From a plasmid, in sequence record NZ_CP024587.1: a DNA stretch of 64,000 nucleotides. One strand, 5' to 3'. The notes under the pieces are model-generated. The model saw only the letters and a list, made by a program, of their open reading frames with translations. It was not told the DNA's origin and searched no databases. How positions within the stretch are numbered: position 1 is the stretch's first letter; each line of letters begins with the position of its first letter. Positions 20,430 through 58,878 of the stretch are shown piece by piece. The position numbers were made by a program, and so were the translations under genes.

Positions 20430-20454
20430 TGGATTCGCCAGATAGCTTGCCGGC

Positions 20455-20688
20455 ATGTCCGACGAGCGTCCCAACGAATCCAGCGGCAATCCGCTGACCC
20501 CCGCGCGGCCGGAGGAGGTGGCCGAGGCCCTGTCCTACGCTCTGCGCTACGACGAGCGCGGCCGGCCGCGACCGCATGGCGGCGAGATGATCGCGGATCT
20601 GGCGGCCCAGCACCTGGCCCGCCATCTGGAGCGGGCCGGCTTCGTGCTGATGAAGCGCCCGCCCGGTCGGCCGCACCATGTCGGCTGA
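20455..20688 (+). CDS. Small ORF (77 aa) translationally coupled to imuB, in the position usually held by imuA
   Basis: 'MSDERPNESSGNPLTPARPEEVAEALSYALRYDERGRPRP...'. The stop overlaps the imuB start by 11 nt. Not RecA-like. Confidence 0.4.
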   Translation: MSDERPNESSGNPLTPARPEEVAEALSYALRYDERGRPRPHGGEMIADLAAQHLARHLERAGFVLMKRPPGRPHHVG

Positions 20689-22195: not shown

Positions 22196-22202
22196 GGCTC
22201 CG

Positions 22203-25200: not shown

Positions 25201-25445
25201 TCGTCGTCTACGCCGACATCGCTGCACGCGACCGCGCTGCCCTGATCGGGGCCCGGCTGCTGCTGGTGGAGGGACGGATCGAGCGTGAGGCCGAGCGGGC
25301 CGAGGTGCCGGTCATCCACCTGATCTGCCGCCGATTGGAGGACCGCTCCGACTTGCTCAGAGGCCTTATGGATGACGATTTCAGCGGTCAAAGGCCCCCG
25401 GCTCAATCACCCAAAGGCATGCCAGCAAGCCGGGACTTTCGGTAA
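22203..25445 (+). CDS. dnaE2: Error-prone DNA polymerase DnaE2 (ImuC)
   Basis: 1,080 aa; PHP domain 'LGCRSNFTLLDGASHPQEL', Pol IIIalpha core ('DIDVDFEHERREEVIQ', 'LLKVDILALGMLS', 'FYDLVVQVALVRPGP') and OB-fold C-terminus. Confidence 0.9.
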   Translation: MSPAYAELGCRSNFTLLDGASHPQELVATAAALGHAGLGLCDTNSLAGVVRGHVAAREFDLPYVVGCRLRLDDGAEYLAWPTDRTSYGRLTRLLSLGRMRSPKGECAITREEMLAHAPGWCLAAVSPLRPDLAFADRLQADARALRGVLALPLLCTATVRFDDIDEDRLEALAEMTAVTGTGLLATNDVRYHAPGRRPLADVLTAIRLGRPVDRLGQAAEPNAERHLKPPAEMARLFRDHPDALRSTLRVLDACQGFSLSQLRHEYPDEILEPGRTPQQTLAVRVAEAATARFPRGVSSDIQARLDHELALIGQLDYAPYFLTVDEVVRFARGRGILCQGRGSAANSSVCYVLGITAVDPSKHDLLFERFLSAERAEPPDIDVDFEHERREEVIQFLYRRYGRDRAAIVGTVIRFRGRSAVREVGKVLGLSEDVTGRLAKASWGPGRDDSLVEIAAAEGLDLADRRLRLALELAEEIQDFPRHLATHVGGFVISRGPLIEMAVIGNAAMDGRTVLEWDKNDVEALGLLKVDILALGMLSCLRRGFELLRRHRLADLDLAAVPRDCDETYAMLRRADSLGVFQVESRAQMNMLPRLRPSRFYDLVVQVALVRPGPIQGDMVHPYLRRRWGDEAPVYPSPAPEHGPPDELEKVLGRTLGVPLFQEQAMRVAIVAAGFSPGEADQLRRAMATFKYTQGVAVYRDRLVGGMVRRGYDPELAERVFKQIEGFGSYGFPESHAASFAHLAYASAWLKCHHPAVFAAALLNSQPMGFYAPAQIVRDAQQHRVVVRRLDVNESQWDCTLEPEARSAEGLALRLGLRLAEGLAAEDGKRVAEARRAGNGSPFASVDEVVRRAGVPRRAIEALAAADGFAGMGLDRRTALWDARGVENDTPPLLRLAGQAAAAGEPPLLSEPSSALPAEDDGQAMMLDYVATGLSLRQHPLALLRPRLQALGCRTTRDLDSLRGGARIRLAGLVLMRQRPGTAKGIVFVTVEDEHGTANLVVYADIAARDRAALIGARLLLVEGRIEREAERAEVPVIHLICRRLEDRSDLLRGLMDDDFSGQRPPAQSPKGMPASRDFR

Positions 25446-29522: not shown

Positions 29523-29854
29523 GCACCACCGAACGCGCGGCTCCGGCCCCGAGCCACGAAGCGTGGACCCTTGCACGGGCCCTGCACACCGCCTTTCTCC
29601 GGCTGCCCGACCGGCTGAGAGCCCGCTGCACGGTGCCGCCGACCGGGGATGCCGCGATCGACCGGCCGGTGCTGGTCGAGGCCTGCGACGGCTCCGACCA
29701 CTACCGGGGCGTGGTGGTCGCGGGACAGCGCGACGAGAGCGGCCTCTGGTTGCTGGACGACGCCTTCACCCTGCTGACCCTCGACCACGACGACGGCCCC
29801 GAGGCCGCGCTTGTCGTCTGCCATGGATGGAACTGCCATGCCGACCGCATCTGA
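29519..29854 (+). CDS. Hypothetical small protein
   Basis: 111-aa ORF whose start overlaps the toprim stop (ATGA). It overlaps the helicase 5' end, so one of the two starts is likely shorter. Confidence 0.3.
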   Translation: MSTTERAAPAPSHEAWTLARALHTAFLRLPDRLRARCTVPPTGDAAIDRPVLVEACDGSDHYRGVVVAGQRDESGLWLLDDAFTLLTLDHDDGPEAALVVCHGWNCHADRI

Positions 29855-31877: not shown

Positions 31878-31953
31878 GGGAGCATAAAAGGTAAGGGAGG
31901 ACGCGACGGCAGGGGAAGGAGATGGACTCTGTGCCACCCTCGGCCGGATCGCC

Positions 31954-32001
31954 GCAAGGGTGCGTCGGCTCACGCCTCCCGCCGCTGCGCGGCGCCCTTG
32001 C
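31954..32001. repeat. Leading-region stem-loop element, copy 2 (GCAAGGG-N34-CCCTTGC)
   Basis: Upstream of the GHKL gene. The extended about 150-nt unit (31930-32060) is shared with copy 3, including TGCCACCCTCGGCC and the GGTCTTCGAGAAGAAGA hairpin. Confidence 0.6.
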
Positions 32002-32088
32002 CCCGCTCCGCCCGGGGCGGCTGCGCGTGGGGGTCTTCGAGAAGAAGATCAGCAGGAGAGGCTACCCGTGACCCACGCCACCACCATC

Positions 32089-33840
32089 ATGCCCGCGCCG
32101 TCCATTCCGATCGCCCGCATCCGCGGCGCCCTGGGCGAGAAGGTGCTGCGCAAGAGCCCGGAGCTGTTCAACCAGTCGCTGCCCACCGTGCTGGCCGAGG
32201 TGCTGCAGAACGCCCGCCGTGCCGGCGCCAGCCGGGTCGAGATCGAGCACTTCGGCGAGGAGGGCCGGGCCACCCTTGTCGTGCGCGACAACGGGCACGG
32301 CATTGCCGACATGGGCAAGCTGGTGACCTTCGGCGCCTCCGCCTGGGACGAGCGGACGGATCTGGCGGAGAACGCCGCCGGCATGGGGGTGTTCTCGCTC
32401 GCCTCGCGCGGCGTGACCGTGCGTTCCCTCGGCCGGCGGGTGACGCTGAGCCGGGCGGTGTTCTGCGGCGAGGCCGACGCCGCGGTGCTGCCTGACCCCG
32501 GGATGGACGCTGGCACCGAGCTGACCTTTCCGGTCACGGAGGCTGGTGTCGCACGGCTCGTGGAGCGGGCGTGCCGCTTCTACCCATTGCCGGTGACCCT
32601 GAACGGCCAGCCCCTGGGGCAGCGCGACTTCCTGGCCGCCGCCGAGCATGTGGTGGAATGGCAGGGGCTGCGCCTGGGTGTGTTCCGGGAGCCCGGACCT
32701 CAGGTGCTGGATCTGTTCGACCGCCACCGTGGCTGGAGCAGCCGTCTGTACCTGAACTTCCACGGCCACGTCGTGGAATGCGGCACGGCGGTCGCCCTTG
32801 CCGAGGTGAGGGGGCCCACCCGGAGCGTGTTCGTGGACGTGATGTCGGCCCCGGACCTGCGCCTGGTGCTGCCGGCGCGCAACGAGCCGATCGACAACGA
32901 CTTCTTCCGCGCCATGCGGGCGCGGGCGGAGCGGGCTCTGCTGGAGGCGGTTGCCCGGCAACCGAAGCATGCGCTGGCCTTCACCGACGCGGAGCGGGCC
33001 GAGCGGCTGGGGATCACCCTGCCACCCGTGGAGATCGCGCTGTCTCCCTGGCGGATGGTCACCTACGAGACGCGGAGCCGTCTGGATGGCGTGGAGGCGC
33101 CCGTGGTGCTCGGAACGGATGGAACCGAGGTGCTGCTGGCGGACGGCGTCAGGTGGAGTGAGGCCTGCGACCAGGCCAACCTGCACCGCCTGCTGCTGGG
33201 CTGGAAGGATGGTCCCCGGGTGGTGGAGTCCAATCCCCGTTTCGCCGGCTATCCCGCCTATGACGCGCTGCGCGTCGTGTGGGAGGTGTCGGCGGTCGGC
33301 GTCGGTGCGGACGGTATGACCGAGGAGCTGGCGCCGCCGGTCTCAGGCAGCCCGCCCGTGTCGTGCGAGGACGATCGCCGGGTGGTCGAGACGGTGCGTG
33401 CCCGCCTCCTGGTGCAGAACGGAGGCCATTCACCCGGCGTGCCGACCCTTCTGCACGAGGCGGAGGTTCCCTTCTTCTTTACCTCCGAGGCCTTCGGTGA
33501 TCTGTTCCCGGACTTCGTCGTGACGCGTGGCACCGCTCCCGGTGATCTGACTGATGCCCTGGTTGAGGGGTTCTTCAGCTACAGCGACGATGCTGATGCC
33601 GACAGCTACGACCGGCAGCTGGAATGCTTCACGGTGGATGCCCTGGACATGGCTCGCGGACTGCTGCTGGACAATGACGCGGCCGTGGCGGCGCGGATCG
33701 TCGACGCCCTCCGGGATTCCCGCTGGGTGCTGCGCACCCTGGGCACCGGGCGCATCGAGCTGCAGATCACCGAATCCCAGGTAGGCAGCACGATCCGCAT
33801 CGTCAACGCGGCGGGCAAGGAGGTGACGGCCACCCTGTAG
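32089..33840 (+). CDS. GHKL-superfamily ATPase domain protein (N-terminal Bergerat fold, long C-terminal region of unknown function)
   Basis: N-box 'EVLQNARRAGAS', G1 'VRDNGHGIADMGKL', G2 'GMGVFS'. An alternative GTG start is at about 32068. Confidence 0.6.
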   Translation: MPAPSIPIARIRGALGEKVLRKSPELFNQSLPTVLAEVLQNARRAGASRVEIEHFGEEGRATLVVRDNGHGIADMGKLVTFGASAWDERTDLAENAAGMGVFSLASRGVTVRSLGRRVTLSRAVFCGEADAAVLPDPGMDAGTELTFPVTEAGVARLVERACRFYPLPVTLNGQPLGQRDFLAAAEHVVEWQGLRLGVFREPGPQVLDLFDRHRGWSSRLYLNFHGHVVECGTAVALAEVRGPTRSVFVDVMSAPDLRLVLPARNEPIDNDFFRAMRARAERALLEAVARQPKHALAFTDAERAERLGITLPPVEIALSPWRMVTYETRSRLDGVEAPVVLGTDGTEVLLADGVRWSEACDQANLHRLLLGWKDGPRVVESNPRFAGYPAYDALRVVWEVSAVGVGADGMTEELAPPVSGSPPVSCEDDRRVVETVRARLLVQNGGHSPGVPTLLHEAEVPFFFTSEAFGDLFPDFVVTRGTAPGDLTDALVEGFFSYSDDADADSYDRQLECFTVDALDMARGLLLDNDAAVAARIVDALRDSRWVLRTLGTGRIELQITESQVGSTIRIVNAAGKEVTATL

Positions 33841-37892: not shown

Positions 37893-38867
37893 ATGGCCCA
37901 TCCCCGCCGCCAGTCGTCCGAACGCCCGGCGTCCCGCGACCACTACGCCGAGATCACGGCCCAGGTGATCGCGGCACTGGAGGCGGGCACCCTGCCGTGG
38001 CGCCGTCCCTGGGACCAGGACAAGGCCGGCGCCGGTCCGCTCTCGCCGCGCAATGCCACCACCGGCCGCCGTTATCACGGGATCAACCTGCTGCTGCTCG
38101 GCATGACGGGCATGGCCTTCGCCGGCACCGACCCCCGGTGGCTGACCTACAAGCAGGCCGAGGCGAAGGGCTGGCAGGTCCGCCGCGGCGAGCGCGGCTC
38201 GCGCGTGTTCTTCTTCCGCAAGCTGACCCTGCGCGACGGCGACGCCGCGCCGGATGCCGGCGGCGAGGGGGAGGGGGCCACCCGCACCGTGCCGGTGCTG
38301 CGCGCCTACACCGTATTCCACGCGAGCCAGGTGGACGGCATCGCCCCCTTCGAGGCGCCTTCCGTCGAGGAGGCGTCCTGGCGCACGCCCGAGGCAGCCG
38401 GGACCATCATGCGCAACAGCGGCGTGGTGTTCCGCGAAGGCGGCGACCGTGCCTTCTACTGCCCCGCCACCGACCACATCCAACTGCCCCCACGCGCCGC
38501 CTTCGCGAGTCCGGAAGGCTATTGCGCGACGGCGCTGCACGAGCTGGCGCACGCCTCCGGCGCGACGCACCGGCTCGACCGCGACCTGACCGGCCGCTTC
38601 GGCAGCCAGGCCTACGCGCAGGAGGAGCTGCGCGCCGAGTTGGCCTCCTGCTTCATCGGCGCCGAGCTGGGCCTGCCCTGCGATATCCCCAACCACGCCA
38701 GCTACGTGGCGTCGTGGCTCAGGACGCTGCGCGAGGACAAGCGCGAGATCTTCCGCGCCGCGGCGGAGGCACAGAGGATCACCGACTACCTGCTGGCCTT
38801 CCACCCCGGATACGCCCGGATCGCGGCCGAGGACGCACGGCGCGACGAGGCCGGCGACGAGGCGTGA
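37893..38867 (+). CDS. ardC: ArdC-family antirestriction protein (ssDNA-binding N-domain plus zincin-like metallopeptidase C-domain)
   Basis: 'ITAQVIAALEAGTLPWRRPW', 'YHGINLLLL', 'RWLTYKQAEAKGWQVRRGERG' and C-terminal 'ALHELAHASGATHRLDRD...AQEELRAELASCFIGAELG'. Confidence 0.8.
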   Translation: MAHPRRQSSERPASRDHYAEITAQVIAALEAGTLPWRRPWDQDKAGAGPLSPRNATTGRRYHGINLLLLGMTGMAFAGTDPRWLTYKQAEAKGWQVRRGERGSRVFFFRKLTLRDGDAAPDAGGEGEGATRTVPVLRAYTVFHASQVDGIAPFEAPSVEEASWRTPEAAGTIMRNSGVVFREGGDRAFYCPATDHIQLPPRAAFASPEGYCATALHELAHASGATHRLDRDLTGRFGSQAYAQEELRAELASCFIGAELGLPCDIPNHASYVASWLRTLREDKREIFRAAAEAQRITDYLLAFHPGYARIAAEDARRDEAGDEA

Positions 38868-40104: not shown

Positions 40105-41611
40105 GTCGGCCTTGAACAACGTCTTCAGGCTGTCGCCCCTGCGAGCAGGGTGCGGCCTGTCGGGACGCTGGCTTGGCTGATCGGGGTGAGGATTGCCTGT
40201 CGGAGGGCGGCGAGGAGAGCGGCCAAAAGGGCCCTGAGGTGGGCGAGGATCTTGCGGATGTTGTGGCCGCAGCCGCAGAGGACGGCGTAGAGAGCATCGC
40301 CGAGCGTGCCCTTGAGGGCGCAGCGGGCGAGGCGGCCATCGGTCTTCATGTGGCCGATCTCGGGCTCGATGGCGCTGCGGCGGCGGAGCAGCCGGCGCAG
40401 GCGGGGCGTGAGGCCGCGGCTGGTGCCGCTGACGAGCACCCTGGTTGCCGTGACGCCATGGCCGCGGTAGCCGCGATCGACCACGGCGAGGCTGGGACGC
40501 TGGCCGGTGAGGGTCTCGACCTGCTGGAGGGCGTCGGCGAGGGTGTGGCCGTCGTAGGGATTGCCGGGCTGGCTGCGCATGCCGACGACGAAGCCACCGG
40601 CGAGGGTGGTGGCGATGCTGACCTTCGTGCCGAACTCGTAGCGCACCCGCGCCTTGCCCTTGGCGATGCAGTCCACCTCGGGCTCGTGCAGGGCGTAGAG
40701 CTTGCGGGACGACTTCGGTGTCTGGAGCAGCAGGCGGGTGACGAGGGCGATGCGCTGCTCGATGCGCGCCCGCAGTGGCCCGTCAGGGACGGCGCCGAGC
40801 TTGCGTTCAACATCGCGCAGGATGCGGCCGGTGTAGCCCTTGAGCGTGCGCAACGCCTTGCGCATGCGGCGGAACTGCCGGGCGTGGGCGTAGCGCCCCA
40901 CCTGGCCGGCCAGGCGCGGCGCCAGGCGATTGTAGTTCTGGCGCAGGGCGATCCCGGCCTTGTGCGCCAGCGTCACCAGCGAGTGGCGGGCCCGCTCATA
41001 GAGGCGGCTGTCGGTCGGATGGGCGATGGCCTTCTCCATCACTGTGGTGTCCACTGCGATCTCGGCCAAGCTGTTCGACGTCACAGCTCCCGAAGCCTGA
41101 GCCGCCTCGATCGTCCTGGTCAGCAACCACTCGACACCTTCCTCACCGATGCGACCGCGCCAGCGGCTGAGAGAGGAGGGATGGATGGGCGCACGGTGCT
41201 GGAAGAAGGTCTCACCCGTGAAGTGCTGGAAGTACGGGTTCTCCACCCAGCGCGCGAGCACCGCCTCGTCGGAGAGGCCATGGGCGTGCTGGAGGTACAT
41301 CAGCCCGGCGACCAGACGCGGATGCGTGGCCGGCCGTCCCTCAGCGGCGGGGAAGAAGCCGGCCCATTCCCGCTCGAACCAGGACCAGTCGATCAGCGCC
41401 GCCAGCCGCACCAGTTCGTGCCGCCCATCGATCATGTCGACCAGCCGCGGCCGCAGCAGATCGGCCTGTTCCGGCGGGCGCGGGCGGTGCTTCATGCCCA
41501 CAAGATTCGCAGGGTTTGTCGTCGAAAACAATCGAACCCTGCAAATCCAGGTCGCCGAGCCCGGAAAATCTCACAGCTAGATCAGTGCCTTACGAGTTAT
41601 TCAAGGCCGAC
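40105..41611 (-). mobile_element. IS5/IS1182-family insertion sequence (about 1.5 kb)
   Basis: Terminal IRs GTCGGCCTTGAA / TTCAAGGCCGAC flanked on both sides by TACGTA. Contains an intact transposase. Confidence 0.65.
40125..41495 (-). CDS. IS5-family transposase (DUF772 N-domain plus DDE)
   Basis: 'LVRLAALIDWSWFEREWAGFF...THPRLVAGLMYLQHAHGLSDEAVLARWVENPYFQHF' and C-terminal 'RSAIEPEIGHMKTDGRLARCALKG'. Confidence 0.8.
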   Translation of the reverse strand: MKHRPRPPEQADLLRPRLVDMIDGRHELVRLAALIDWSWFEREWAGFFPAAEGRPATHPRLVAGLMYLQHAHGLSDEAVLARWVENPYFQHFTGETFFQHRAPIHPSSLSRWRGRIGEEGVEWLLTRTIEAAQASGAVTSNSLAEIAVDTTVMEKAIAHPTDSRLYERARHSLVTLAHKAGIALRQNYNRLAPRLAGQVGRYAHARQFRRMRKALRTLKGYTGRILRDVERKLGAVPDGPLRARIEQRIALVTRLLLQTPKSSRKLYALHEPEVDCIAKGKARVRYEFGTKVSIATTLAGGFVVGMRSQPGNPYDGHTLADALQQVETLTGQRPSLAVVDRGYRGHGVTATRVLVSGTSRGLTPRLRRLLRRRSAIEPEIGHMKTDGRLARCALKGTLGDALYAVLCGCGHNIRKILAHLRALLAALLAALRQAILTPISQASVPTGRTLLAGATA

Positions 41612-42759: not shown

Positions 42760-45700
42760 ATGGCCAAGGCCAAGTCCTCCCTCGACCAGCTCAGCCTGTT
42801 CGACACCACCGCCCTGACCTCCTTCTCGCTCGACGGCGGCGGCTTCGGTACGCTGCTGCCGCCTCTCGATGCGACGGAGGAGGAGCCGGACGACGCGCCG
42901 ATCGCGCCCGCCGTGCCGCGCGTGGTCGCCCACGACTTCCGCCTCGCCGGCGACCGTGGCCTCGCCAGCAGCTGGAAGGCCCGTGCCGCAGGCAACCTCG
43001 CCGCCATCCGGCTGATGCAGCGCATCGAGGCCGAGACGCGTCCGGCGACCGCCGAGGAGCAGGCGGTGCTGGCGCGCTTCGTGGGCTACGGCGCCTCCGA
43101 CTTGGCCAACGCGCTGTTCCGCCGCCCCGGCGAGGCATGGCGGGAGGGCTGGGCCGAGCAGGGCGACGGGCTCGAGCAGGCCGTGTCCGCCGCGGAGCTG
43201 GCCAGCCTCGCCCGCTGCACGCAGTACGCACACTTCACCCCCGAATACGTCGTGCGCGCCGTCTGGGCCGGGCTGACCCGGCTCGGCTTCCGTCAGGGCA
43301 GCATCCTGGAGCCCGGTTGCGGCACCGGCCTGTTCCTGGCCCTGCGGCCGGAGGGGATGGCGGACTGCTCCACCGTGACCGGGATTGAGATGGACACGGT
43401 CACCGCCCGTATCGCGGCGCTGCTCCATCCGAAGGCCTGGATCCGCCAGGAGGACTTCACCCGCGCCCGTATCCCCGAGACCTTCGACCTCGCCCTCGGC
43501 AACCCGCCCTTCTCGGACCGCACGGTGCGGGCCGACGACCCGGCCGGCAAGCTCGGCCTCAAGCTGCACGACTACTTCATCGCCCGTGCCGTCGAGCGCC
43601 TGAAGCCCGGCGGATTGGCCGCCTTCGTCACCAGCCACGGCACGCTGGACAAGGTGGACCCCAAGGCACGCGAGCACATCGCGGGGATGGCCGACCTGGT
43701 GGGCGCGATCCGCCTGCCCGCCGGCAGCTTCGCCGCGGCCGCCGGCACCGACGTCGTGGTGGACATCCTGTTCCTGCAGCGCCGCGAGCGCGGTGCCGAG
43801 CCGAACGGGGTGGAATGGGCCCATCTCGCGGAGGTGGTCCCGGCCGAAGCCGGCGAGGCGGCGATCCACGTCAACGCCTGGTTCGCCGCGCACCCGGAGA
43901 CGGTGCTGGGCCGCCACGGATGGACCACCGGCCCGTTCGGCCTGGCCTACGACTGTGCCCGCGACGGACGTGACCTGGACGCCGCCCTGGCCGAAGCCGT
44001 CGCCCGGCTGCCCCAAGGCATCCACCAGCCGCCGGCGGACGCCGTGGCGGCGCGCCCGGCGAGGACCGCCGCCCGGGCCGGCACCGCCGCCGAGGGTGCG
44101 ACGATCAAGGAGGGCTCCTACCTGATCGGCGAGGGTGGCGTGCTGTTGCAGGTGGTGGACGGCACCGCCGAGCCGGTCGCGGTGAAGTCCGGCAAGGGCA
44201 CGGTCGGCCTGTTCGCGAAGCACGCCCGCATCATCCGCGGCCTGATCCCGGTCCGCGAGGCGGTGCGCGGGGTGATCCGTGCCCAGGAGGCCGACCAGCC
44301 CTTCGGCGCCGCCCAGGTGCGGCTGCGGGCGGCCTATGGCAGCTTCGTGCGCGCCTTCGGGCCGATCAACCTCACCAACATCAGCACCAGCACGGATGAG
44401 GAAACGGGTGAGGTCCGCGAGACCGTGCGCCGGCCCAACCTGCAGCCCTTCCTCGATGACCCGGATTGCTGGCTGGTCTCCTCGATCGAGGAGTACGATC
44501 CCGAGACCGGCACCGCCCGCAAGGGGCCGATCTTCACCGAGCGGGTGATCCACGCCCCGGCCGAGCCGATGATCGTCTCGGCCGCCGACGCGCTGGCCGT
44601 GACGCTGGCCGAGCGTGGCGTGGTGGACCTAGCCCATGCCTGCGACCTCCTCGGCCGCGACCGCGAGACGGTGCTGGCCGAGCTGGGCGACACCGTGTTC
44701 CTCGATCCTGACCTGACCACCGAGGGCTTCGAGGCCTGGCAGACCGCCGACGAGTACCTGTCGGGGCAGGTCCGCCGCAAGCTCGCCGCGGCCCGTGCCG
44801 CCGCGACGCTGGATGCGCGCTACGCCCGCAACGTCGTGGCGCTGGAGCGGGTGCAGCCCGAGGACCTGCGCCCCTCCGACATCACCGCCCGCCTCGGCGC
44901 CCCCTGGATCCCGGCCCGGGACGTCGCGGCCTTCATCCAGGAGGTGATCGGGGTGGAGACGCCGGTCCGTCACACCGTCGAGGTGGCGCATTGGAGCATC
45001 GACGTCCACCGTTTCGTGGGGCTGGCCTCCGCCACCTCGGAGTGGGGGACGCACCGCCGCCACGCGGGCGAATTGCTGGACGATGCCCTGAATGCCTCGA
45101 TCCCGCAGATCTGGGACGTGTGGCGGGACGCCGAGGGCGAGCACCGGCAGCTCAACGCCCAGGAAACCGAGGCGGTGAAGGACAAGCTGGCGAAGATCAA
45201 GGACGCCTTCGAGCGTTGGGTCTGGACCGACAGCGACCGCGCCGAGCGACTGGTCCGCCTGTATAATGACGCCTTCAACAGCCTGGTTCCCCGGCACTTC
45301 TCGGGCGAGCACCTGCAGCTGCCGGGCGCCTCCACGGTGATCCAGCTGCGCCCGCACCAGAAGCGTGTCGTCTGGCGCATCGTCGCCTCGGGGCAGACCT
45401 ACGTCGCCCACGCGGTCGGCGCCGGCAAGACCTTCACCATCGCCGCCGCGATCATGGAGCAGAAGCGCCTCGGCCTGATCTCCAAGGCCATGCTGGCCGT
45501 GCCCGGCCACTGCCTGGCCCAGGCCTCGCGCGAGTTCCTGCAACTCTATCCGGGTGCCCGCATCCTGGTGGCCGACGAGACCAACTTCTCCAAGGACAAG
45601 CGCGCGCGCTTCCTGGCCCGGGCGGCCACCGCCAACTGGGACTGCATCATCATCACCCACTCGGCCTTCAAGTTCATCGCCGCCCCGGCCGCGTTCGAGC

Positions 45701-47832
45701 GTGGTCTCGTACAGGACCAGCTCGATGCCTACGCGGCCCTGCTGGAGAAGCTCGATGGCGACGACCGCATCGCCCGCAAGCGCATCGAGCGCATGAAGGA
45801 AGGCATGCAGGAGAAGCTCGAAGCGCTCGCCTCGGCCAAGGACGACATGCTGACCATCGCCGAGATGGGCGTCGACCAGGTGATCGCCGACGAGGCACAG
45901 GAGTTCCGGAAGCTCTCCTTCGCCACCAACATGGGCAACCTCAAGGGCATCGCCCCGGACGGCTCGCAGCGCGCCTGGGATCTGTTCGTGAAGTCACGCT
46001 TCGTGGCGACCGTGAACCCGGGCCGGGCGCTGATCCTCGCCTCCGGCACTCCCATCACCAATACCCTGGGCGAGATGTTCACCCTGCAGCGCTTCATGCA
46101 GCCGGAGATGCTGGAGGAGCGCGGCATCCAGGAGTTCGACGCCTGGGCCGCCAACTTCGGGGACACGCGCACCGAGCTGGAGCTGCAGCCCTCGGGCCTC
46201 TACAAGCCGGTGACCCGCTTCTCGGAGTTCGTCAACGTCGCCGACCTGATCGCCATGTTCCGCTCGGTCGCGGACGTCGTGCTCAAGGACGACCTGCGCC
46301 AGTACCTGAAGCTGCCCGCCATCCAGGGCGGCCGGCGCCAGATCGTCACCGCCCCCGCCAGCCCGGCCTTCCGGGACTACCAGAGCGCCCTCGCGGCGCG
46401 CATCAAGGCCATCGAGGCGCGCAAGGGCAAGCCCCAGAAGGGCGAGGACATCCTGCTCTCGGTCATCACCGATGGCCGCCATGCCGCCATCGACCTGCGT
46501 TTCGTCGTGGCGGAGGCGGAGGATGACCCCGGCAACAAGCTCAACGCGCTGATCGACAACGCCTTCCGCATCTGGTCGGAGACGCGCGGCAAGGTCTTCC
46601 GCAACCCGGACGGCACGCCGCACCCGACCCCCGGTGCCACGCAGATGATCTTCTCCGACCTCGGCACCGAAGGGGCAGCGGCGACGCGGGGCTTCTCGGC
46701 CTACCGCTGGATCCGGCAGCGCCTGATCGGCCTCGGCGTGCCGGCCGAGCGCATCGCCTTCATGCAGGACTACAAGAAGGCCGAGGCCAAGCAGGGCCTG
46801 TTCACCAAGCTGAACAACGGCCAGGTGGATTTCCTGCTCGGTTCCTCGGCCACCATGGGAACGGGGGTGAACGCCCAACGCCGGCTGGTGGCGCTGCATC
46901 ACCTCGACGTGCCCTGGCTGCCCTCCGAGATCGAGCAGCGCGAGGGCCGTATCGAGCGGCAGGGCAACCAGAACGACGAGATCGGCCTCTACGCCTACGC
47001 GACCCTGGGCTCGATGGACGCCCAGATGTGGCAGAACAACGAGCGCAAGGCGCGCTTCATCGCGGCGGCGCTGGGCGGCGACCGCTCGATCCGCCGGCTG
47101 GAGGATATCGGCTCCCAGGCGAACCAGTTCGCGATGGCCAAGGCCATCGCCTCGGGCGACCCCCGCCTGATGCAGAAGGCTGGGCTGGAGGCCGAGATCG
47201 CCCGGCTGCAGCGCCAACGGGCGGCGCATTTCGACGACCAGCACGCGGTGCGGCGGCGCGTCGCCGAGGCGCGCTCGGCCATCGGCCGTGCCACCCAGGC
47301 CATCACCGACACCGAGGCGGACCTCGCGCGCCGGGTATCGACCCGGGGCGAGGAGTTCCGCATGGAGGTGCAGGGCAGGACCTTCGCCGAACGCAAGGAG
47401 GCGGGGGCCGCACTGCTGAGGATCCTGCGCACTGTGCAGTTCGAGGGCCGCCAGGGCGATTGGGAGCTCGGCGCGGTCGGCGGCTTTCCGCTGACGCTGG
47501 AGGCCCGCCGTTACCGCCAGGGGGCCGATCTGGACATCCACCTGCTGCTGGGCCGCGCCTACGGCCAGCAGGAGATCCAGGTGGAGGACGACCTGTCCGC
47601 GCTCGGACTGGTGGCCCGGCTCGAATACGCCCTGGGACGCTTCGAGGCGGAATTGGCCGGGCACCGGCGGGACCTGGAGGAAGCCGAGCGCCGGCTGCCG
47701 GCCTACCAGGCCCGGCTGGGCGACGCCTTCGAGTTCCAGGCCGAGCTGGATGCCAAGCTGGCTGAAATGCAGGCACTGGAGGCGGATCTGGCGCAGAGTG
47801 GCAAGGAGGAGGCGGTTGCCGCGGCGGCATGA
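42760..47832 (+). CDS. Large methyltransferase-SNF2/DEAD helicase fusion (about 1,690 aa)
   Basis: N-terminal N6-adenine/N4-cytosine MTase motifs 'ILEPGCGTGLF' (motif I) and 'LGNPPF' (motif IV). Central helicase 'LRPHQKRVVWRI...AHAVGAGKTF' (motif I), 'ADEAQEFRKL' (DEAQ). C-terminal helicase 'QGLFTKLNNGQVDFLLGSSATMGTGVNAQRRLVALHHLDVPW'. Confidence 0.85.
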   Translation: MAKAKSSLDQLSLFDTTALTSFSLDGGGFGTLLPPLDATEEEPDDAPIAPAVPRVVAHDFRLAGDRGLASSWKARAAGNLAAIRLMQRIEAETRPATAEEQAVLARFVGYGASDLANALFRRPGEAWREGWAEQGDGLEQAVSAAELASLARCTQYAHFTPEYVVRAVWAGLTRLGFRQGSILEPGCGTGLFLALRPEGMADCSTVTGIEMDTVTARIAALLHPKAWIRQEDFTRARIPETFDLALGNPPFSDRTVRADDPAGKLGLKLHDYFIARAVERLKPGGLAAFVTSHGTLDKVDPKAREHIAGMADLVGAIRLPAGSFAAAAGTDVVVDILFLQRRERGAEPNGVEWAHLAEVVPAEAGEAAIHVNAWFAAHPETVLGRHGWTTGPFGLAYDCARDGRDLDAALAEAVARLPQGIHQPPADAVAARPARTAARAGTAAEGATIKEGSYLIGEGGVLLQVVDGTAEPVAVKSGKGTVGLFAKHARIIRGLIPVREAVRGVIRAQEADQPFGAAQVRLRAAYGSFVRAFGPINLTNISTSTDEETGEVRETVRRPNLQPFLDDPDCWLVSSIEEYDPETGTARKGPIFTERVIHAPAEPMIVSAADALAVTLAERGVVDLAHACDLLGRDRETVLAELGDTVFLDPDLTTEGFEAWQTADEYLSGQVRRKLAAARAAATLDARYARNVVALERVQPEDLRPSDITARLGAPWIPARDVAAFIQEVIGVETPVRHTVEVAHWSIDVHRFVGLASATSEWGTHRRHAGELLDDALNASIPQIWDVWRDAEGEHRQLNAQETEAVKDKLAKIKDAFERWVWTDSDRAERLVRLYNDAFNSLVPRHFSGEHLQLPGASTVIQLRPHQKRVVWRIVASGQTYVAHAVGAGKTFTIAAAIMEQKRLGLISKAMLAVPGHCLAQASREFLQLYPGARILVADETNFSKDKRARFLARAATANWDCIIITHSAFKFIAAPAAFERGLVQDQLDAYAALLEKLDGDDRIARKRIERMKEGMQEKLEALASAKDDMLTIAEMGVDQVIADEAQEFRKLSFATNMGNLKGIAPDGSQRAWDLFVKSRFVATVNPGRALILASGTPITNTLGEMFTLQRFMQPEMLEERGIQEFDAWAANFGDTRTELELQPSGLYKPVTRFSEFVNVADLIAMFRSVADVVLKDDLRQYLKLPAIQGGRRQIVTAPASPAFRDYQSALAARIKAIEARKGKPQKGEDILLSVITDGRHAAIDLRFVVAEAEDDPGNKLNALIDNAFRIWSETRGKVFRNPDGTPHPTPGATQMIFSDLGTEGAAATRGFSAYRWIRQRLIGLGVPAERIAFMQDYKKAEAKQGLFTKLNNGQVDFLLGSSATMGTGVNAQRRLVALHHLDVPWLPSEIEQREGRIERQGNQNDEIGLYAYATLGSMDAQMWQNNERKARFIAAALGGDRSIRRLEDIGSQANQFAMAKAIASGDPRLMQKAGLEAEIARLQRQRAAHFDDQHAVRRRVAEARSAIGRATQAITDTEADLARRVSTRGEEFRMEVQGRTFAERKEAGAALLRILRTVQFEGRQGDWELGAVGGFPLTLEARRYRQGADLDIHLLLGRAYGQQEIQVEDDLSALGLVARLEYALGRFEAELAGHRRDLEEAERRLPAYQARLGDAFEFQAELDAKLAEMQALEADLAQSGKEEAVAAAA

Positions 47833-47904
47833 CTGTCCATCCCGAATATCCATATTTTCTGGATATTCGGGATCCGGATCTCGGCCGCGAGGCGCTTGAA
47901 GCAG

Positions 47905-47991
47905 GCAGAGGAGGAGGAACGGGTACGTCTCGTCAGCGCGCGGCGGGCGACCAGGGCGGAACGGAGGGCCTACGAGGATGGCAGCGATCAG
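47905..47991 (+). pseudogene. Remnant of a BrnT (RelE-like, DUF497) toxin, only the C-terminal tail retained
   Basis: Frame upstream of brnA reads 'EEERVRLVSARRATRAERRAYEDG', matching the BrnT C-terminal consensus (xRIISARKATKxEReQY). It has no start and about 60 N-terminal residues are absent. It overlaps the brnA ATG as in intact brnTA operons. Confidence 0.45.
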
Positions 47992-48262
47992 TAAGGAGCA
48001 GCGCGAGCGCCTGGAACGGCTGGCCGCCGCGCCGGAGGATGAGATCGACACCACGGACATTCCGGAAGTCCGGGACTGGTCCGATGCGGTGCGCGGCGGC
48101 CTCCACAGGCCGCGCAAGGAAGCCATCACGATCCGGCTGGATGCGGATGTGCTGGCCTGGTTCAGGGAGCACGTCCAATCGGGCCGGGGCTATCAGACCG
48201 AGATCAACCGAGTGCTACGCAAGCATGTGCGGAATGCCGCGAAGGGGGGCAAGACCCTGTAG
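47978..48262 (+). CDS. brnA: BrnA-family antitoxin (orphan)
   Basis: 'EDEIDTTDIPEVRDWSDAVRG...RKEAITIRLDADVLAWFREHVQSGRGYQTEINRVLRKHV' matches BrnA. Confidence 0.65.
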   Translation: MAAISKEQRERLERLAAAPEDEIDTTDIPEVRDWSDAVRGGLHRPRKEAITIRLDADVLAWFREHVQSGRGYQTEINRVLRKHVRNAAKGGKTL

Positions 48263-48481
48263 CTCGGCCTTGGACCGGCCGTGCAAAAAGAAAGGCGGCG
48301 CCCGAGGGTGCCGCCCAAGTTTAGGGAGGAAACGTCCAAGTAAGGCGGCAACCCAGCGGGTGCCGTGTCGCCGCACCCCGCACCATGACCCAGGCTGCCC
48401 TTCGGGTCCAATCAAATGACGCGCCGCAGCAGAACGGGCCGAGCCGGTGTCCTCGTGCTCCGCTCTCATGCCTGGGATGTT

Positions 48482-48533
48482 GGAAAGCCGGAAAGCCGGA
48501 AAGCGGGAAATCGGGAAACACGGAAAGCGGGGG
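48482..48533. repeat. Tandem 8-bp repeat array (C/G)GGAAA(G/T)C, about 6 units, upstream of the parB-like gene
   Basis: GGAAAGCC GGAAAGCC GGAAAGCG GGAAATCG GGAAACAC GGAAAGCG. ORF 48416-48925 is merely its translation. Confidence 0.55.
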
Positions 48534-48770
48534 AGAGGAGGAGCAGGAGCGCTGGCATCCGGGCACCGCCCGGCACCGCTTCGCTCCACGGCCGCCTGCG
48601 CAGCCCTGCCCCGCTGGGCCGCAGCCCGCCCTGCCGGGCTGGGCCGCGTCCGGCGACGGGTCAGGGCCGCTCGCCCGCCGTGGTGCCGGACGGCCCCCGG
48701 CCGCCGGCGTGGGAGGGGTCAGCCCAGGAATGGGGTGACGGGAACCCCGGTCCGGAGAGCCACTCTCGCC

Positions 48771-50537
48771 ATGAAGATCGTCCACGCCAACCCGCGCAAG
48801 CTGCGCGACAACCCCGAGAACCCCCGCCGCACCAGGCCGAGCGCGGAGGCCGACGCGCAGTTGCTCGCCAATATCCAGGCGGTCGGCATCCTGCAGCCGC
48901 CCACCGCGCGCGAGATCGCGGGTGAACTGGTCCTGATCGCCGGCCACCGTCGCCGCGACGCGGCCATCAAGGCGAAGCTGAAGGAGATCGCCGTCCTCGT
49001 CCGCGAGCCCGGCGACGACGCCGCGCAGGGCGGCGACGGCGTGCGGGCGCTGGCCGAAAACATGGTCCGCACCGCGATGAGCCCGGTAGACCAGTGGCGC
49101 GCCGTCGAGGCGCTGGTCGGGGAGGACTGGACCGAGGACGCCATCGCAGCCGCGCTGAACCTGCCGGTGCGCCGCATCCGCGCCCTGCGCCACCTCTCGC
49201 GCGTGCATCCGGCGATGCTGGACCACATGGCACGCGGCGACATGCCGACCGACCAGCAGCTCCGCACCATCGGCCTCGCCTCGGCCGAGGATCAGGCCTC
49301 GGTCTGGCAGAGGAGCAAGCCGAAGCGCGGCGAGCGCGCCCACTGGCACGGTATCGCCGCCGCCCTGGAGAAGCGCCGCATCCCCTTCGCCGTCGCCAGG
49401 TTCGGCGAGGCCGAGACCGAGGCCTTCGGGATCGTCTGGCAGGACGACCTGTTCGCCCCCGCCGGAGAGGAGGGCCGCTTCACCACCCAGCTCGACGCCT
49501 TCCTGCAGGCGCAGCAGGCGTGGCTGGAGGCCAACCTGCCAGACCGCGCCGTGCTCCTGGGCCTCGACGAGTGGGGCCGCGTCATGTTCCCCAAAGGGGC
49601 GCAGGAGCTCTACTACAAGCAGCCCCGCGACGAGTTCGACCGCATCGGCCTCACCGTCGATCCGCGCTCCGGCGAAGTGCGGCAGACGCTGTTCCGGGAG
49701 GCACCGCCCCGCGAGGAGCGCGGTGGCCGGGGCCGTGAGGCATCGGCCGATGGCACGGTGCTGCCCAAGGTCACCCGCCCGCCGCTGACCCAGAAGGGCG
49801 ACGCCATGGTGGGCGACCTGCGCACCGACGCGCTGCACGAGGCTTTCGCGCAGGCCGAGATCCCGGACCAGACCCTGATCGGCCTGCTCGTGCTCGCGCT
49901 CGCCGGGCAGAACGTGCAGGTCCGCAGCGGCGCCAAGGGCGACGACCTGTACGCCGGAGCGCGCGCCGCGATCGCCGCCGGCCTCCTCGAAGGCGGCGTG
50001 CTCACCGCAGACGCGGACGCCCTGCGTGCCGCCGCCCGCGCCATGCTGCGCCAGGCGCTGTCCTGCCGGGTGGGCTTCTCCACCTCGGGCCTGGTCGCCC
50101 GCTACGCCGGGGTGGCTGTCGATGCCGACGCCTACCTTCCCACCACCGCCACCGAGGAGTTCCTGGCCCATCTGAGCAAGGACGCGATCATGGGCACGGC
50201 CAGCGCCAACAACGTGGCGCCGCGCAACACCGGCAAGGCAACCCGTGCTGCGGTGGTCGAGCGCTTCAAGGGGCAGACCTTCCTCCACCCGCTGGTGCGC
50301 TTCGCGCTGACCACGGAGGAGCAGCGCAAGTTGGCCGAGCAGCGGCAGCGGGAGGAGAGCCGCGCCGCCCTGCGCGCCAGCTGGCAGTCCTCTGGGGAGG
50401 ATGATGGGGAGGACGAGAGCTCCGGCGAGGAAGAGACCGCGGGCAACATGGATATGGATGGCGAGGAGGTGGATCTCCCTACCGATGGCCTCCATCCGCC
50501 GTCCGGCAGCCAGCCCCCGGTTGTCCATACCACCTGA
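48771..50537 (+). CDS. ParB/Srx nuclease-domain protein (leading-region ParB-like)
   Basis: N-terminal ParB box 'LVLIAGHRRRDAA', 589 aa, acidic C-terminal tail. Confidence 0.75.
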   Translation: MKIVHANPRKLRDNPENPRRTRPSAEADAQLLANIQAVGILQPPTAREIAGELVLIAGHRRRDAAIKAKLKEIAVLVREPGDDAAQGGDGVRALAENMVRTAMSPVDQWRAVEALVGEDWTEDAIAAALNLPVRRIRALRHLSRVHPAMLDHMARGDMPTDQQLRTIGLASAEDQASVWQRSKPKRGERAHWHGIAAALEKRRIPFAVARFGEAETEAFGIVWQDDLFAPAGEEGRFTTQLDAFLQAQQAWLEANLPDRAVLLGLDEWGRVMFPKGAQELYYKQPRDEFDRIGLTVDPRSGEVRQTLFREAPPREERGGRGREASADGTVLPKVTRPPLTQKGDAMVGDLRTDALHEAFAQAEIPDQTLIGLLVLALAGQNVQVRSGAKGDDLYAGARAAIAAGLLEGGVLTADADALRAAARAMLRQALSCRVGFSTSGLVARYAGVAVDADAYLPTTATEEFLAHLSKDAIMGTASANNVAPRNTGKATRAAVVERFKGQTFLHPLVRFALTTEEQRKLAEQRQREESRAALRASWQSSGEDDGEDESSGEEETAGNMDMDGEEVDLPTDGLHPPSGSQPPVVHTT

Positions 50538-50628
50538 CACCGCAAGCCTGGTCGCATGGCCGACGCCCTGGGAAGGCTGAGAAGCGGACGCAGGACACGA
50601 AGGCCCCTGCCGCATCCGTCCCCCGGCG

Positions 50629-51548: not shown

Positions 51549-52256
51549 TTGAGCAATATGGACACCCTGGTTGAGCGCGCCCTGCGCTCGGCAGCCGAGG
51601 ATCTCGGCCTTTCGCCCGATGGATGGAGCCGGATCCGGGGCGATTCCGGCACGAGCCAGGCCTTCCGGCACACCGCCCGCCCCGCCCTGGTGGTCGAGGT
51701 GAGCATGGATGGGCCCGGATGGAGCTGGACGGCCAGCCTGGCGAAGTCGCATCGCCAGCCCGCCCTTGGTCCTGCCCAGCCCTGGGCGTGCATCGACGGC
51801 CTTGCCGTCCGGGTCAGCCCCAGCCAGCGCGGGGCGCTCCTCGATGCCCTGGCGATCGCCGGCGACAACATCGCGGAGGCCAACGCCTGCTCGACCGCGA
51901 TGCTGCAGACCCGCCTGGACGTGCTGGTCAGCCGTCGCGGTTTCGACCTGTTCGTCGCCCCCGTGCAAAACCTCGACAGGAGGCAGGCCGAGCCGGCTGC
52001 CCCGCTGCGCCTGGATTGGAGCTACCGAGGGCAGACGCCGGACGGCGACGACGTCGCGGGCGTCGTTCAGGGCGCAGACGAGGCCGAGGCCATCGAGGCG
52101 GTCGAGCGCCTCTGGGCCGGCCTCGACCTCATGGAGCTATCACCACGCCTCGCCGGGCTGGCGCCCTTGTCCTCCGCTGCCCGCCGCTTGGCCGAAGATG
52201 GATTGCGGCAGGCGGGAGCCCAGGGGCCCGCATCGGGTCTGCCCGCGCTGCACTGA
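51549..52256 (+). CDS. Hypothetical protein (235 aa)
   Basis: Preceded by repeat-element copy 8; followed by a perfect 14-bp-arm palindrome (52290-52319). Confidence 0.4.
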   Translation: MSNMDTLVERALRSAAEDLGLSPDGWSRIRGDSGTSQAFRHTARPALVVEVSMDGPGWSWTASLAKSHRQPALGPAQPWACIDGLAVRVSPSQRGALLDALAIAGDNIAEANACSTAMLQTRLDVLVSRRGFDLFVAPVQNLDRRQAEPAAPLRLDWSYRGQTPDGDDVAGVVQGADEAEAIEAVERLWAGLDLMELSPRLAGLAPLSSAARRLAEDGLRQAGAQGPASGLPALH

Positions 52257-52339
52257 TCCTCCCACCCCCCGAAACAGCCATCGGCATCGCGAACGGCAGG
52301 GCCTGGGCCCTGCCGTTCGCGTTTCAGGAGCCCCGCGCC

Positions 52340-54148
52340 ATGATTTCCGAGCACGGCCACGCCACCATTCTGCACGCCCACCTCTTCGCCGGCCTCGGCG
52401 GAGGTGCCCGCGGCTTCAACCGCGCCACCTCGCGGGTGGGCAACCTCACCGCCAGCTTCCGCTGCCTCGGCGGCATCGACGTCGACGCCGGGGCGATCCG
52501 CGACTTCGGCCGCCTCGCCGGTGTGCCCGGCACCTGCATGGACCTGTTCGACCGCGAGCAGTACCGCGACTTCCACGGCCAGGAGCCACCGATCGGCTGG
52601 CGCGAGGCCACCGTGGACGATGTGCGCGCCGCCTTCGGCCACGAACGCCCCCACGTCCTGTTCACCTCGCCACCCTGCAAGGGCTTCTCCGGCCTGCTCA
52701 GCGAGACCAAGAGCAGGACCCGGAAATACCAGGCGCTGAACCGCCTGACGCTGCGCGGCATCTGGCTGGCGCTGGAGGCCTATCGCGACGATCCGGTGGA
52801 GCTGATCCTGCTGGAGAACGTGCCGCGCATCGCGTCGCGCGGGCGTCCCCTGCTCGACCGGATCACCGGCCTGCTACGCGCCTATGGCTACGCCGTGGCC
52901 GAGACCACCCATGATTGTGGGCAGTTGGGTGGCCTGGCGCAGTCGCGCCGCAGGTTCCTGCTGGTGGCCCGCCACACCGCCAAGGTGAAGCCCTTCCTCT
53001 ACCAGCCGCCGAAGCGCCCGCTGCACGGCGTGGGGGACATTCTTTCCCGGATGTCCCTGCCGGGCGATCCGGCGGCCGGGCCGATGCACCGGGTCCCGAT
53101 GCTGCACTGGTCCACCTGGGTCCGGCTCGCCTTCGTCGAGGCCGGAAGCGACTGGCGTTCCCTCGGCAGGCTCAAAGTCGAGGACGGGATGTTGCGCGAC
53201 TACGCCCTTGCCCCCTGCGGCGAATGGCGCGGCGGCGTTCTCGGCGTGAACCGCTGGGACGAGCCGTCCGGCACCGTGGCGGGCCGTTCCGGTCCCTCCA
53301 ACGGCGCCTACAGTGTCGCCGACCCGCGCCGCGCCGAAGGCGTGGCCGCCTTCGGGCAGTACGGGGTCAAGCGCTTCGACGAGCCGTCCCAGGTGGTGAT
53401 CGGCAAGGCCGCGGTCGGGGCCGGCCATTTCGCCGTGGCCGATCCTCGCCACGCCGGGCCGCCCAAGCACAGCAACGAGTTCCGCATCGTCCCCTGGGAC
53501 GGGGCCGGACGGGCGGTCACAGGCGCCCATGGCACCGGCCAGTGCGTGGCGGATCCGCGCGGAGACGTGCGCCGCTCCGGAGCGCTGGGCGTCGTGTCGT
53601 GGGAGTCCAATGCCGGCACCGTGGCGGGTGAGAGCCTGCCATCCAACGGCACCTTCGCGGTCGCCGATCCCCGGCCGCGCCTGGAACGGGAGAAGGGTGA
53701 CGACTACTACGGCGCCGGCCATTACGGCGTGGTGCCGTGGCGGGAGCCCACGGGTGCCGTCAGCGCCGCCGCCGGCTACGACAACGGCCGCTGGAGCGTG
53801 GCGGACCCCCGCCCGATCCTGCCCAGCGCGACCGAGAAGGTCGTGGCCCGCATCCGCGCCCTCGACGGCACCTGGCACCGGCCTTTCACCACCGCCGAGC
53901 TGGCGGCGCTGCAATCGTTGTTCGACCCGGAGGAGCAGGCCGAGCTGGACGGGCTGAGCGATGCCGACTGGCGCGAGCGCATCGGCAACGCCGTCCCGCC
54001 CGACGCCGCGCAGGCCATCGCCGAGACGATGGGCCGCACGCTCCTGCTGGCCTGGTCGGGCGAGGGCTTCATGCTCTCGGCCCTGCCGATCTGGGTACGT
54101 CCGGTCGCGGTGGCCCTCTCCGTACGCCAGCCCCAGGACGAGGCCTGA
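52340..54148 (+). CDS. Orphan C5-cytosine DNA methyltransferase with C-terminal repeat region
   Basis: Motif I 'LFAGLGGGARGF', motif IV 'TSPPCKGFS', motif VI 'LLENVPR'. The C-terminal half carries five 'VADPR' repeats. Confidence 0.75.
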   Translation: MISEHGHATILHAHLFAGLGGGARGFNRATSRVGNLTASFRCLGGIDVDAGAIRDFGRLAGVPGTCMDLFDREQYRDFHGQEPPIGWREATVDDVRAAFGHERPHVLFTSPPCKGFSGLLSETKSRTRKYQALNRLTLRGIWLALEAYRDDPVELILLENVPRIASRGRPLLDRITGLLRAYGYAVAETTHDCGQLGGLAQSRRRFLLVARHTAKVKPFLYQPPKRPLHGVGDILSRMSLPGDPAAGPMHRVPMLHWSTWVRLAFVEAGSDWRSLGRLKVEDGMLRDYALAPCGEWRGGVLGVNRWDEPSGTVAGRSGPSNGAYSVADPRRAEGVAAFGQYGVKRFDEPSQVVIGKAAVGAGHFAVADPRHAGPPKHSNEFRIVPWDGAGRAVTGAHGTGQCVADPRGDVRRSGALGVVSWESNAGTVAGESLPSNGTFAVADPRPRLEREKGDDYYGAGHYGVVPWREPTGAVSAAAGYDNGRWSVADPRPILPSATEKVVARIRALDGTWHRPFTTAELAALQSLFDPEEQAELDGLSDADWRERIGNAVPPDAAQAIAETMGRTLLLAWSGEGFMLSALPIWVRPVAVALSVRQPQDEA

Positions 54149-57607: not shown

Positions 57608-58389
57608 GTTAGTCAATCATCCTGGACGCCAGTCGGGCAACCGTTCGGACCCAAGGCTCGCACGGCGCATCTTCAACGCCTGGCGCATCGGAACCGCCAT
57701 GCCGATGCCCGACATCGCTCGCCTGCTGGACGTCTGCGGCCATGGGGCGGCTGCCAGCCGGATGCGCCAGACGGCGCTGGAGGGCGGCAGCAATCCCGGC
57801 CTGACCCTCGAAGAAGTCACCGATCTCATCTCCTGCTGGGCGGACGAAACACGGGCTGCGCGACGCAACGCCACGCCTTGAGGCGGGCTCGCGGGGTGCC
57901 CCCTTTCGCCGCCGTCGACCGCGATCCCGCGGAAAGGATGGCATTGGCGCCGCTGATGCCCGGCTCCTGACCAGTCCATAGAGGTCGGATCAGGGATAGG
58001 ATGGAGGGGGAGGAGGGGAATAGAGGAGATTGGAGACGGGCCAGGGGAGATGTCCGAAGGACGAGAGTGGGGAGACGTGTGTCGGCTACCTGCCCGTGCC
58101 GGCCGCATATCCTCGGGGTGCTGCGGTCTGAGCCACGGCGCCGGCCGCTCCTACCCCCGCTTTCCCCGAAGCCGGGGAAAGCGCCTCCGGCTCGGCACGC
58201 TCGGTCAGGGGCCGGGGCCGCGCCTTGCGCGGGGCGATGCCCCGCTGCGGCGCAACCCCAACCCCCTCCCTCACATGCCTCGGGGGTAGGACCGCCCGCC
58301 ACCGCGCCTCTGTTCGACCGCACCCGAGGATACGCGACCGGCACGGGCCGGAAGCCTCTTCGGGGAGAGAGAATGAAGAGGATCTGACG

Positions 58390-58878
<489 letters not shown>

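Follow-up and report, generated by a model that had tools for sequence, protein, structure and literature searches.

The closest described relative of the locus treated here is the BrnT/BrnA pair of Brucella abortus, a type II toxin-antitoxin system (Heaton et al. 2012, summarised in PMC5086665 and PMC11980606) in which both the ribonuclease activity and the toxicity of BrnT need Asp6, Glu7, Lys9, Arg41, and Glu78 (PMC5086665). Orphan antitoxins are abundant in bacteria and are usually read as degrading pairs, as in Klebsiella pneumoniae (PMC7192599). In leading-region anti-defence islands orphan antitoxins such as orphan hipB are over-represented, and a role against competing elements or against toxin-antitoxin defences of the host has been proposed for them (Samuel et al. 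2024, PMC11541004); a phage orphan antitoxin also counters DarTG1 defence (bioRxiv 10.1101/2024.07.11.602962). Here we describe an orphan antitoxin gene, brnA, that stands beside the end of a deleted brnT toxin gene in a stretch of 64,000 nucleotides from the plasmid record NZ_CP024587.1. This whole stretch, hereafter the window, has 69% G+C and comes from a Roseomonas (Acetobacteraceae) plasmid family. The arrangement is probably that of a brnTA addiction module caught in decay, with the orphan brnA as a decay intermediate. The features on which this reading turns are as follows, in window coordinates.

47911 to 47994, + strand: brnT remnant, the last 27 codons plus the TAA stop (47992-47994), located by tblastn
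47978 to 48262, + strand: brnA, intact, 94 amino acids, Pfam PF14384 BrnA_antitoxin
47903 to 47912, no strand: deletion junction, from blastn and alignment against the intact locus L024
47896 to 47901, + strand: TTGAAG, surviving -35 hexamer of the native brnTA promoter, from comparison with the intact loci L010 and L024
42715 to 47832, + strand: N6 DNA methylase / SNF2-type helicase fusion gene, 1705 amino acids, Pfam N6_Mtase, ResIII, Helicase_C, and SNF2-rel_dom

Translation of the remnant (47911-47991) gives EEERVRLVSARRATRAERRAYEDGSDQ, which tblastn matches to residues 70-96 of an intact Roseomonas mucosa BrnT (P0002) at 96% identity. The brnA ATG at 47978 lies inside the remnant, with an overlap of 17 nucleotides; intact operons likewise have the brnA start inside brnT. 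The brnA product, named 'BrnA antitoxin family protein' by NCBI in an identical entry, scores 58.3 bits against the Pfam BrnA_antitoxin profile (gathering score 26.1; E 1e-15; profile positions 23-67 of 68) and consists of an N-terminal toxin-binding segment and a C-terminal ribbon-helix-helix region. An earlier, sequence-only reading of the window had proposed just such an intact brnA beside some 25-30 surviving brnT codons in their native overlapping register, and both parts of that proposal hold. Its placement of the start of the remnant at the stop codon of the methylase-helicase gene has to be corrected: BrnT-derived sequence begins at about 47911, and 47833-47910, which the intact operon also has on its upstream side, is native intergenic DNA. 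The start coordinate of that finding, 47829, is the ATG of a spurious open reading frame (ORF) of 196 amino acids in a third reading frame. The profile comparison that had been suggested as a check does align the remnant with the right end of the Pfam BrnT_toxin profile (PF04365; positions 60-77 of 77), with an E value of 0.12 that is too weak to serve as evidence by itself. Homology at both the DNA and the protein level to intact alleles in the same slot was used instead, and is decisive for the identity of the remnant as brnT.

Independently of this assignment, it may be observed that across 47833-47994 the remnant is in frame with the methylase-helicase gene, with the TGA alone between them, so that reading through this stop would extend the protein by 53 residues. 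Translation continuing from the methylase gene was considered and rejected: brnT of the intact allele lies in the +1 frame, and the in-frame state is the arithmetic of the 244-bp loss described next.

Intact brnTA was found at the same position in related elements, where the sequence-only reading had advised looking for it. In R. mucosa plasmid pSKB0092-2 (AP031464.1, L010) an annotated BrnT of 97 amino acids and a BrnA of 92 amino acids occupy the same slot, flanked by a homologous methylase-helicase gene on one side and a ParB_N gene on the other. A closer intact allele was reached by protein search: BrnT P0002 (96 amino acids, R. mucosa, with the C-terminal end ...EEDRVRLVSARRATRAERRAYEDGSDQ) is encoded at L024-L029, directly 3' of the methylase-helicase gene, and the 94-amino-acid BrnA next to it differs from that of the window solely at residue 43. 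By blastn, window positions 43000-47909 correspond to L024 53-4962 and positions 47911-50562 to L024 5208-7882, which leaves one gap with a net loss of 244 bp (L024 4963-5207). Identity to L024 is about 98.5% over the cassette region; the flanks form a mosaic of 91-99% identity. The deleted segment comprises the -10 box, the operator-like palindrome TTGTACTTACAA, the ribosome-binding site, the ATG, and brnT codons 1 to about 69.

The junction string of the orphan allele, CTTGAAGCAGGCAGAGGAGGAGGA, was identical in 17 of 17 orphan-allele loci examined, and because all sampled orphan copies share one junction, they trace to a single deletion event. These loci were assembled independently, from both isolates and metagenomes (NCBI, ENA, and Logan), which makes it extremely improbable that the truncation is an assembly or sequencing artefact hiding an intact brnT. 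Short G-rich microhomology is present at both deletion end points (GGCGG / GGCNGA) and would fit a deletion by slippage or illegitimate recombination between G-rich repeats. Relative to L010, the remnant carries 7 synonymous and 6 non-synonymous differences, a ratio of non-synonymous to synonymous change (pN/pS) of about 0.29, and the corresponding value for brnA is about 0.24; most of the divergence therefore arose while both were coding, before the deletion.

Neither a family-type start codon nor the N-terminal, catalytic two thirds of the toxin is present in the remnant. As the segment homologous to Asp6, Glu7, Lys9, and Arg41 of Brucella BrnT is deleted, and Glu78 alone lies outside the deleted part, the toxin cannot work. 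With the toxin truncated and both the -10 box and the operator-like palindrome gone, what is left does not form a functional type II toxin-antitoxin module. The inference of an antitoxin without a functional toxin, made earlier from the letters of the window, is thus confirmed, and no full-length BrnT lies in another frame; no other BrnT-like sequence was found in any frame of the 64-kb window, where every match other than the remnant had an E value of at least 0.3.

It could be argued that BrnA serves a full-length BrnT elsewhere in the cell, on the chromosome or another plasmid, or that it has been reused purely as a ribbon-helix-helix repressor of other promoters. This is improbable. The evidence covers 64 kb of one replicon, and Roseomonas strains have several related plasmids, which leaves room for a distant partner; set against this, the window itself holds no BrnT, and among the Roseomonas plasmids of PLSDB, a database in which the BrnTA module occurs in 747 records and is thus very common on plasmids, this BrnT clade is found in AP031464.1 only. 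The repressor variant draws on the full conservation of the C-terminal DNA-binding region of BrnA, and is opposed by the deletion of BrnA's own operator-like palindrome, with no evidence of a new target.

Further stages of loss are preserved in sister plasmids. In plasmid unnamed4 of R. mucosa AD1 (L031, NZ_CP025192.1; 2031-2085), only CGGAGGGCATACGAGGATGGCGGCGATCGGTAAG is left past the methylase stop; this scar of about 35 bp is the overlap of the brnT end with the brnA start, and both genes are deleted. In other sister plasmids the slot is empty, with the small-RNA terminator region immediately past the methylase stop. Nine more distant brnA loci were also compared, of which seven have a full-length brnT and two (L005 and L009) have an independently 5'-truncated brnT beside a brnA ORF, in unrelated genomes. 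Two observations may be added for the record. A similar scar of the brnT-end/brnA-start overlap lies past the methylase stop in CP099475.1 (30213-30258), such scars measuring about 35-46 bp, and the two truncated loci come from a Rhodopila genome bin (L005 5850-6250) and from another alphaproteobacterial genome bin (L009 5750-6150).

The decay that we favour would have started from a brnTA cassette that was intact and repressed itself, with the methylase-helicase gene on one side and a convergent small-RNA terminator on the other; cassettes of this kind survive in R. mucosa sister plasmids. A single event, perhaps slippage or illegitimate recombination at the short G-rich repeats, then removed the net 244 bp, which would have ended the toxin and the plasmid's BrnT-based post-segregational killing at once. 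A toxin-killing deletion would be tolerated and an antitoxin-only deletion would be lethal, so that an orphan antitoxin would be expected first in the decay of such a module. The brnA gene, presumably neutral, would persist because there is no selection against it and little time has elapsed, and its loss would be a later step, as seen in L031. Residual BrnA, if any is made, would stem from read-through from the upstream gene, and could neutralise the BrnT of related plasmids incidentally, as a side effect and not the reason for the gene.

A different role is possible, if doubtful: brnA could have been kept as an orphan antitoxin that works, against addiction or against defence, and that is transcribed together with the methylase-helicase gene as part of a block resembling a leading region. 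Its product would bind the BrnT of resident or competing sister plasmids, or of a host BrnTA, and thereby permit establishment, coexistence, or displacement without killing. Several observations, taken up in this and the following paragraphs, weigh for this role and against simple decay, beginning with the protein itself. Except for H43, BrnA keeps the invariant and near-invariant residues of 116 homologues (Q8, L15, A16, D27, E30, D33, W34, S35, A37, R39, T51, D55, A56, D57, W61, G71, I76, N77, L80, and R81), among them the conserved ribbon-helix-helix residues on which the sequence-only reading had made its case depend. Its residues 6-45 can be aligned to the antitoxin fragment (44 residues) in PDB 7vd7, where the partner, chain A, is a close BrnT homologue (E 1e-26), and the toxin-binding part is therefore present. 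The exception counts on the other side: of the 116 homologues, 99 have Y at position 43, 6 have F, and 3 have H, so that a residue that is aromatic in 105 of them has been altered inside the toxin-binding fragment. Because Y43 orphan copies exist, Y43H is later than the deletion, and is thus a change of a conserved aromatic residue within the orphan lineage. The ribbon-helix-helix fold is an obligate dimer; an AlphaFold2 model of the BrnA monomer shows helices at 56-65 and 71-90 that are compatible with this fold, at a mean predicted local distance difference test score (pLDDT) of 54 that makes the model too weak for use.

Sampling frequency points the same way, at least at first sight. The exact BrnA protein of the window was found in 91 contigs, including a Roseomonas sp. 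FDAARGOS_362 plasmid, and two variants, P0243 (Y43, R82) and P0245 (H43, R82), in 12 and 3 contigs, respectively, with the same arrangement and the identical junction string; the intact-allele BrnA was found in 18. Orphan BrnA is thus sampled far oftener than its intact counterpart, but all of it has a single-event origin, and its abundance may just reflect a successful host or plasmid lineage. Identity to the window is at least 99.6% in ten loci with exact BrnA. The orphan allele has since diversified, to 97.6-99.3% identity, and its haplotypes are mosaic, with 47632-48103 around the junction almost invariant. In the orphan clade, 5 synonymous sites in brnA stand against 2 amino acid changes, where about 1:3 would be neutral (binomial p of about 0.03); this synonymous excess, which would suggest a maintained protein, is mild and inseparable from recombination with intact alleles. 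Targets for a working antitoxin could be at hand, as sister plasmids within the same species include carriers of intact brnTA and a Roseomonas cell has several such plasmids; among the samples listed, however, no co-residence with intact brnT was seen, and one sister plasmid has dropped brnA as well.

The same slot holds a Phd-family antitoxin in NZ_CP025190.1 (L011 3587-3900) and NZ_CP015585.1 (L023 17964-18330). In Roseibium and Methylorubrum plasmids a homologous phd is followed by an overlapping gene for 149-183 amino acids with weak similarity to PemK. In the Roseomonas plasmids this PemK-like partner is cut after about 11 codons (MVAERPETGLV), and a yunG-like gene or chrA stands in its place. 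Phd is thus a second, unrelated, and independent orphan antitoxin in the slot, which adds to the case for a retained function; it may equally be a hint of selection for antitoxin-only states or reflect mere tolerance of toxin-killing lesions. One could go further and speculate, although we consider it rather unlikely, that the slot preferentially keeps antitoxin-only derivatives of unrelated families (BrnA and Phd), co-transcribed with an early-acting methylase-helicase gene and disarming the toxins, of addiction or of defence, made by resident sister plasmids. If true, this would explain why orphan brnA is sampled several times oftener than the intact allele.

Whether brnA could be expressed at all bears on both readings. 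Upstream of intact brnT in L010 the promoter scan gives one promoter-like site, TTGAAG-17-TACAAT, and L024 has the homologous site TTGAAA-17-TACAAA. Only the -35 hexamer survives in the window; the operator-like palindrome, TTGTAC(T/A)TACAA, was deleted together with the -10 box. The scan found no promoter-like site upstream of brnA in the window, weak look-alikes such as ATGACT-18-TATTTT, over the palindrome described below, being below the scan threshold. The loss of the native -10 box, of the operator, and of the upstream translated brnT ORF argues against a working antitoxin, and as that translated ORF is gone, loss of translational coupling is likely. On the other hand, no terminator-like site was found between the methylase stop and brnA, and for this reason co-transcription of brnA with the methylase-helicase gene is possible, as a retained antitoxin would require. 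A strong hairpin in the same interval counts against such a role.

47839 to 47873, no strand: perfect 14-bp inverted repeat, ATCCCGAATATCCA-N7-TGGATATTCGGGAT, identified from sequence

This AT-rich inverted repeat has one match in the window and none in shuffles, and as an RNA hairpin would fold with -33.8 kcal/mol (z -4.0); with no U-tract after it, it is not a canonical terminator. It is also present in L024, which has intact brnTA, and in the Phd plasmids (L011 and L023), and is absent from L010, L012, L031, and L032. From this distribution, the repeat is a backbone element just past the methylase stop and outside the brnTA deletion. A Phd-operator chimera fused to brnA was considered in view of the palindrome shared with Phd plasmid L011, where it overlaps a good promoter, and was ruled out, as the intact brnTA allele of L024 has the same palindrome upstream of its own promoter. 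We also note that homology between the types of cassette stops right after the repeat (GGATC), and that the repeat may serve to stabilise RNA as a hairpin, to bind a protein, or to mark a cassette boundary.

The surroundings of the slot furnish the remaining argument for an anti-addiction or anti-defence role, namely a block of genes that share the + strand with the methylase-helicase gene.

37893 to 38867, + strand: ArdC
51623 to 54148, + strand: C5 methylase
58225 to 58878, + strand: SSB

Together with the ParB_N protein, these genes and the methylase-helicase gene have one shared orientation, and upstream of the block lie RepC, ImuB, DnaE2, and a Toprim protein. The block from ArdC to SSB looks like a plasmid establishment or leading-region island, and to that extent the leading-region setting suggested for brnA by the sequence-only reading finds support in gene content; its position is not corroborated in the same way, as no relaxase or oriT (origin of transfer) was recognised within the 64-kb window, a point that also counts against the anti-addiction role. 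In the sister plasmid NZ_CP025190.1, 20-45 kb separate the block from a MobF relaxase, a stretch that includes insertion sequences and cargo genes, and the block is transcribed toward the relaxase. Transcription toward the relaxase, as in this plasmid, is the orientation expected of F-plasmid leading genes. The role can further appeal to the published proposal for leading-region orphan antitoxins (PMC11541004) and to the phage precedent (bioRxiv 10.1101/2024.07.11.602962). Taken together, the single deletion, the missing promoter, and the further-decayed scar are better accommodated by decay, which remains the probable explanation.

The slot is bordered on the left by the methylase-helicase stop (TGA at 47830-47832) and on the right by a small-RNA gene.

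48278 to 48353, - strand: suhB/mmgR small-RNA gene, Rfam RF00519, 57.2 bits against a gathering score of 41, model positions 1-77 of 77

This gene converges on brnA. Its terminator hairpin, with a fold of -39.5 kcal/mol, ends 16 nucleotides past the brnA stop and is the first terminator-like structure 3' of the methylase-helicase gene. The small RNA is a full-length match to an alphaproteobacterial family, with the UUUCCUCCCUA motif and a proper terminator, and its gene is conserved across sister plasmids, even where the slot is empty. To find it on a plasmid, between methylase-helicase and ParB-like genes, is unexpected.

Other features of the window were noted in passing. Upstream of the ParB_N gene, 48482-48531 is a tandem array of about 6 copies of the octamer GGAAAGCC; L010 has an array similar to these octamers downstream of ParB (6742-6862), and the arrays may be binding sites. 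Between the Toprim gene and ArdC, 29811-33840 encodes a UvrD-type helicase (688 amino acids) and then a GHKL/HATPase_c protein (626 amino acids); this position holds different genes in NZ_CP015585.1 and NZ_CP025190.1, and the two may be a variable defence/anti-defence pair. An IS5-family transposase (DUF772 + DDE_Tnp_1; 40125-41531, - strand) lies between ArdC and the methylase-helicase gene, where sister plasmids have a PAPS-reductase-family gene instead. At 18938-25445, RepC (repABC-type) is followed by an imuB-like Y-family polymerase and then by an error-prone DnaE2, the latter two forming a mutagenesis cassette that adjoins the plasmid replication gene.

As found, the locus matters little beyond its clarity: it is a case of well-documented addiction-module decay, in which toxin and promoter go first and the antitoxin later, with the stages all visible within one plasmid family. 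For annotation, the remnant is best labeled a pseudogene fragment and the 196-amino-acid ORF at 47829 ignored. Should it be true that orphan BrnA is expressed and neutralises the BrnT of sister plasmids, the locus would become a natural test case for a published, largely untested idea, namely a part for orphan antitoxins of establishment regions in competition between plasmids. Both kinds of allele, intact and orphan, circulate together in one skin-associated species.

A chromosomal ccd-type system, attributed to Saavedra De Bast et al. in 2008, is said to protect against plasmid ccd as an anti-addiction module. With this system and with the phage antitoxin that counters DarTG1, the hypothetical anti-addiction or anti-defence role of BrnA would share the logic that an antitoxin acting in trans disarms the toxin of another element; in those two cases neutralisation was proven by experiment, whereas for the window BrnA it is a prediction. 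The likeness to the leading-region islands (PMC11541004) is that of a toxinless antitoxin co-oriented with orphan methylases, SSB, and anti-restriction genes. Unlike the antitoxins of those islands, brnA is visibly a fresh deletion derivative without a promoter of its own, and the likeness comes from gene content and not from oriT position.

The comparison with Brucella BrnT/BrnA, and with the related complex PDB 7vd7, is closer. The order of toxin then antitoxin, the overlapping frames, and the division of BrnA into an N-terminal toxin-binding segment and a C-terminal ribbon-helix-helix region are all shared, and the intact sister alleles have a palindrome over the promoter, as expected of an operon repressed by its own complex. 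Unlike the Brucella system, the window module, with 27 brnT codons left and its control region deleted, can neither poison the cell nor regulate itself. In this respect it resembles the degraded loci of Klebsiella pneumoniae (PMC7192599), in which an antitoxin ORF persists in its original context beside a disrupted toxin. It differs from them in that an ancestor-like allele, the exact deletion, and a further-decayed scar all come from one plasmid family, and for this reason the decay series can be read directly.

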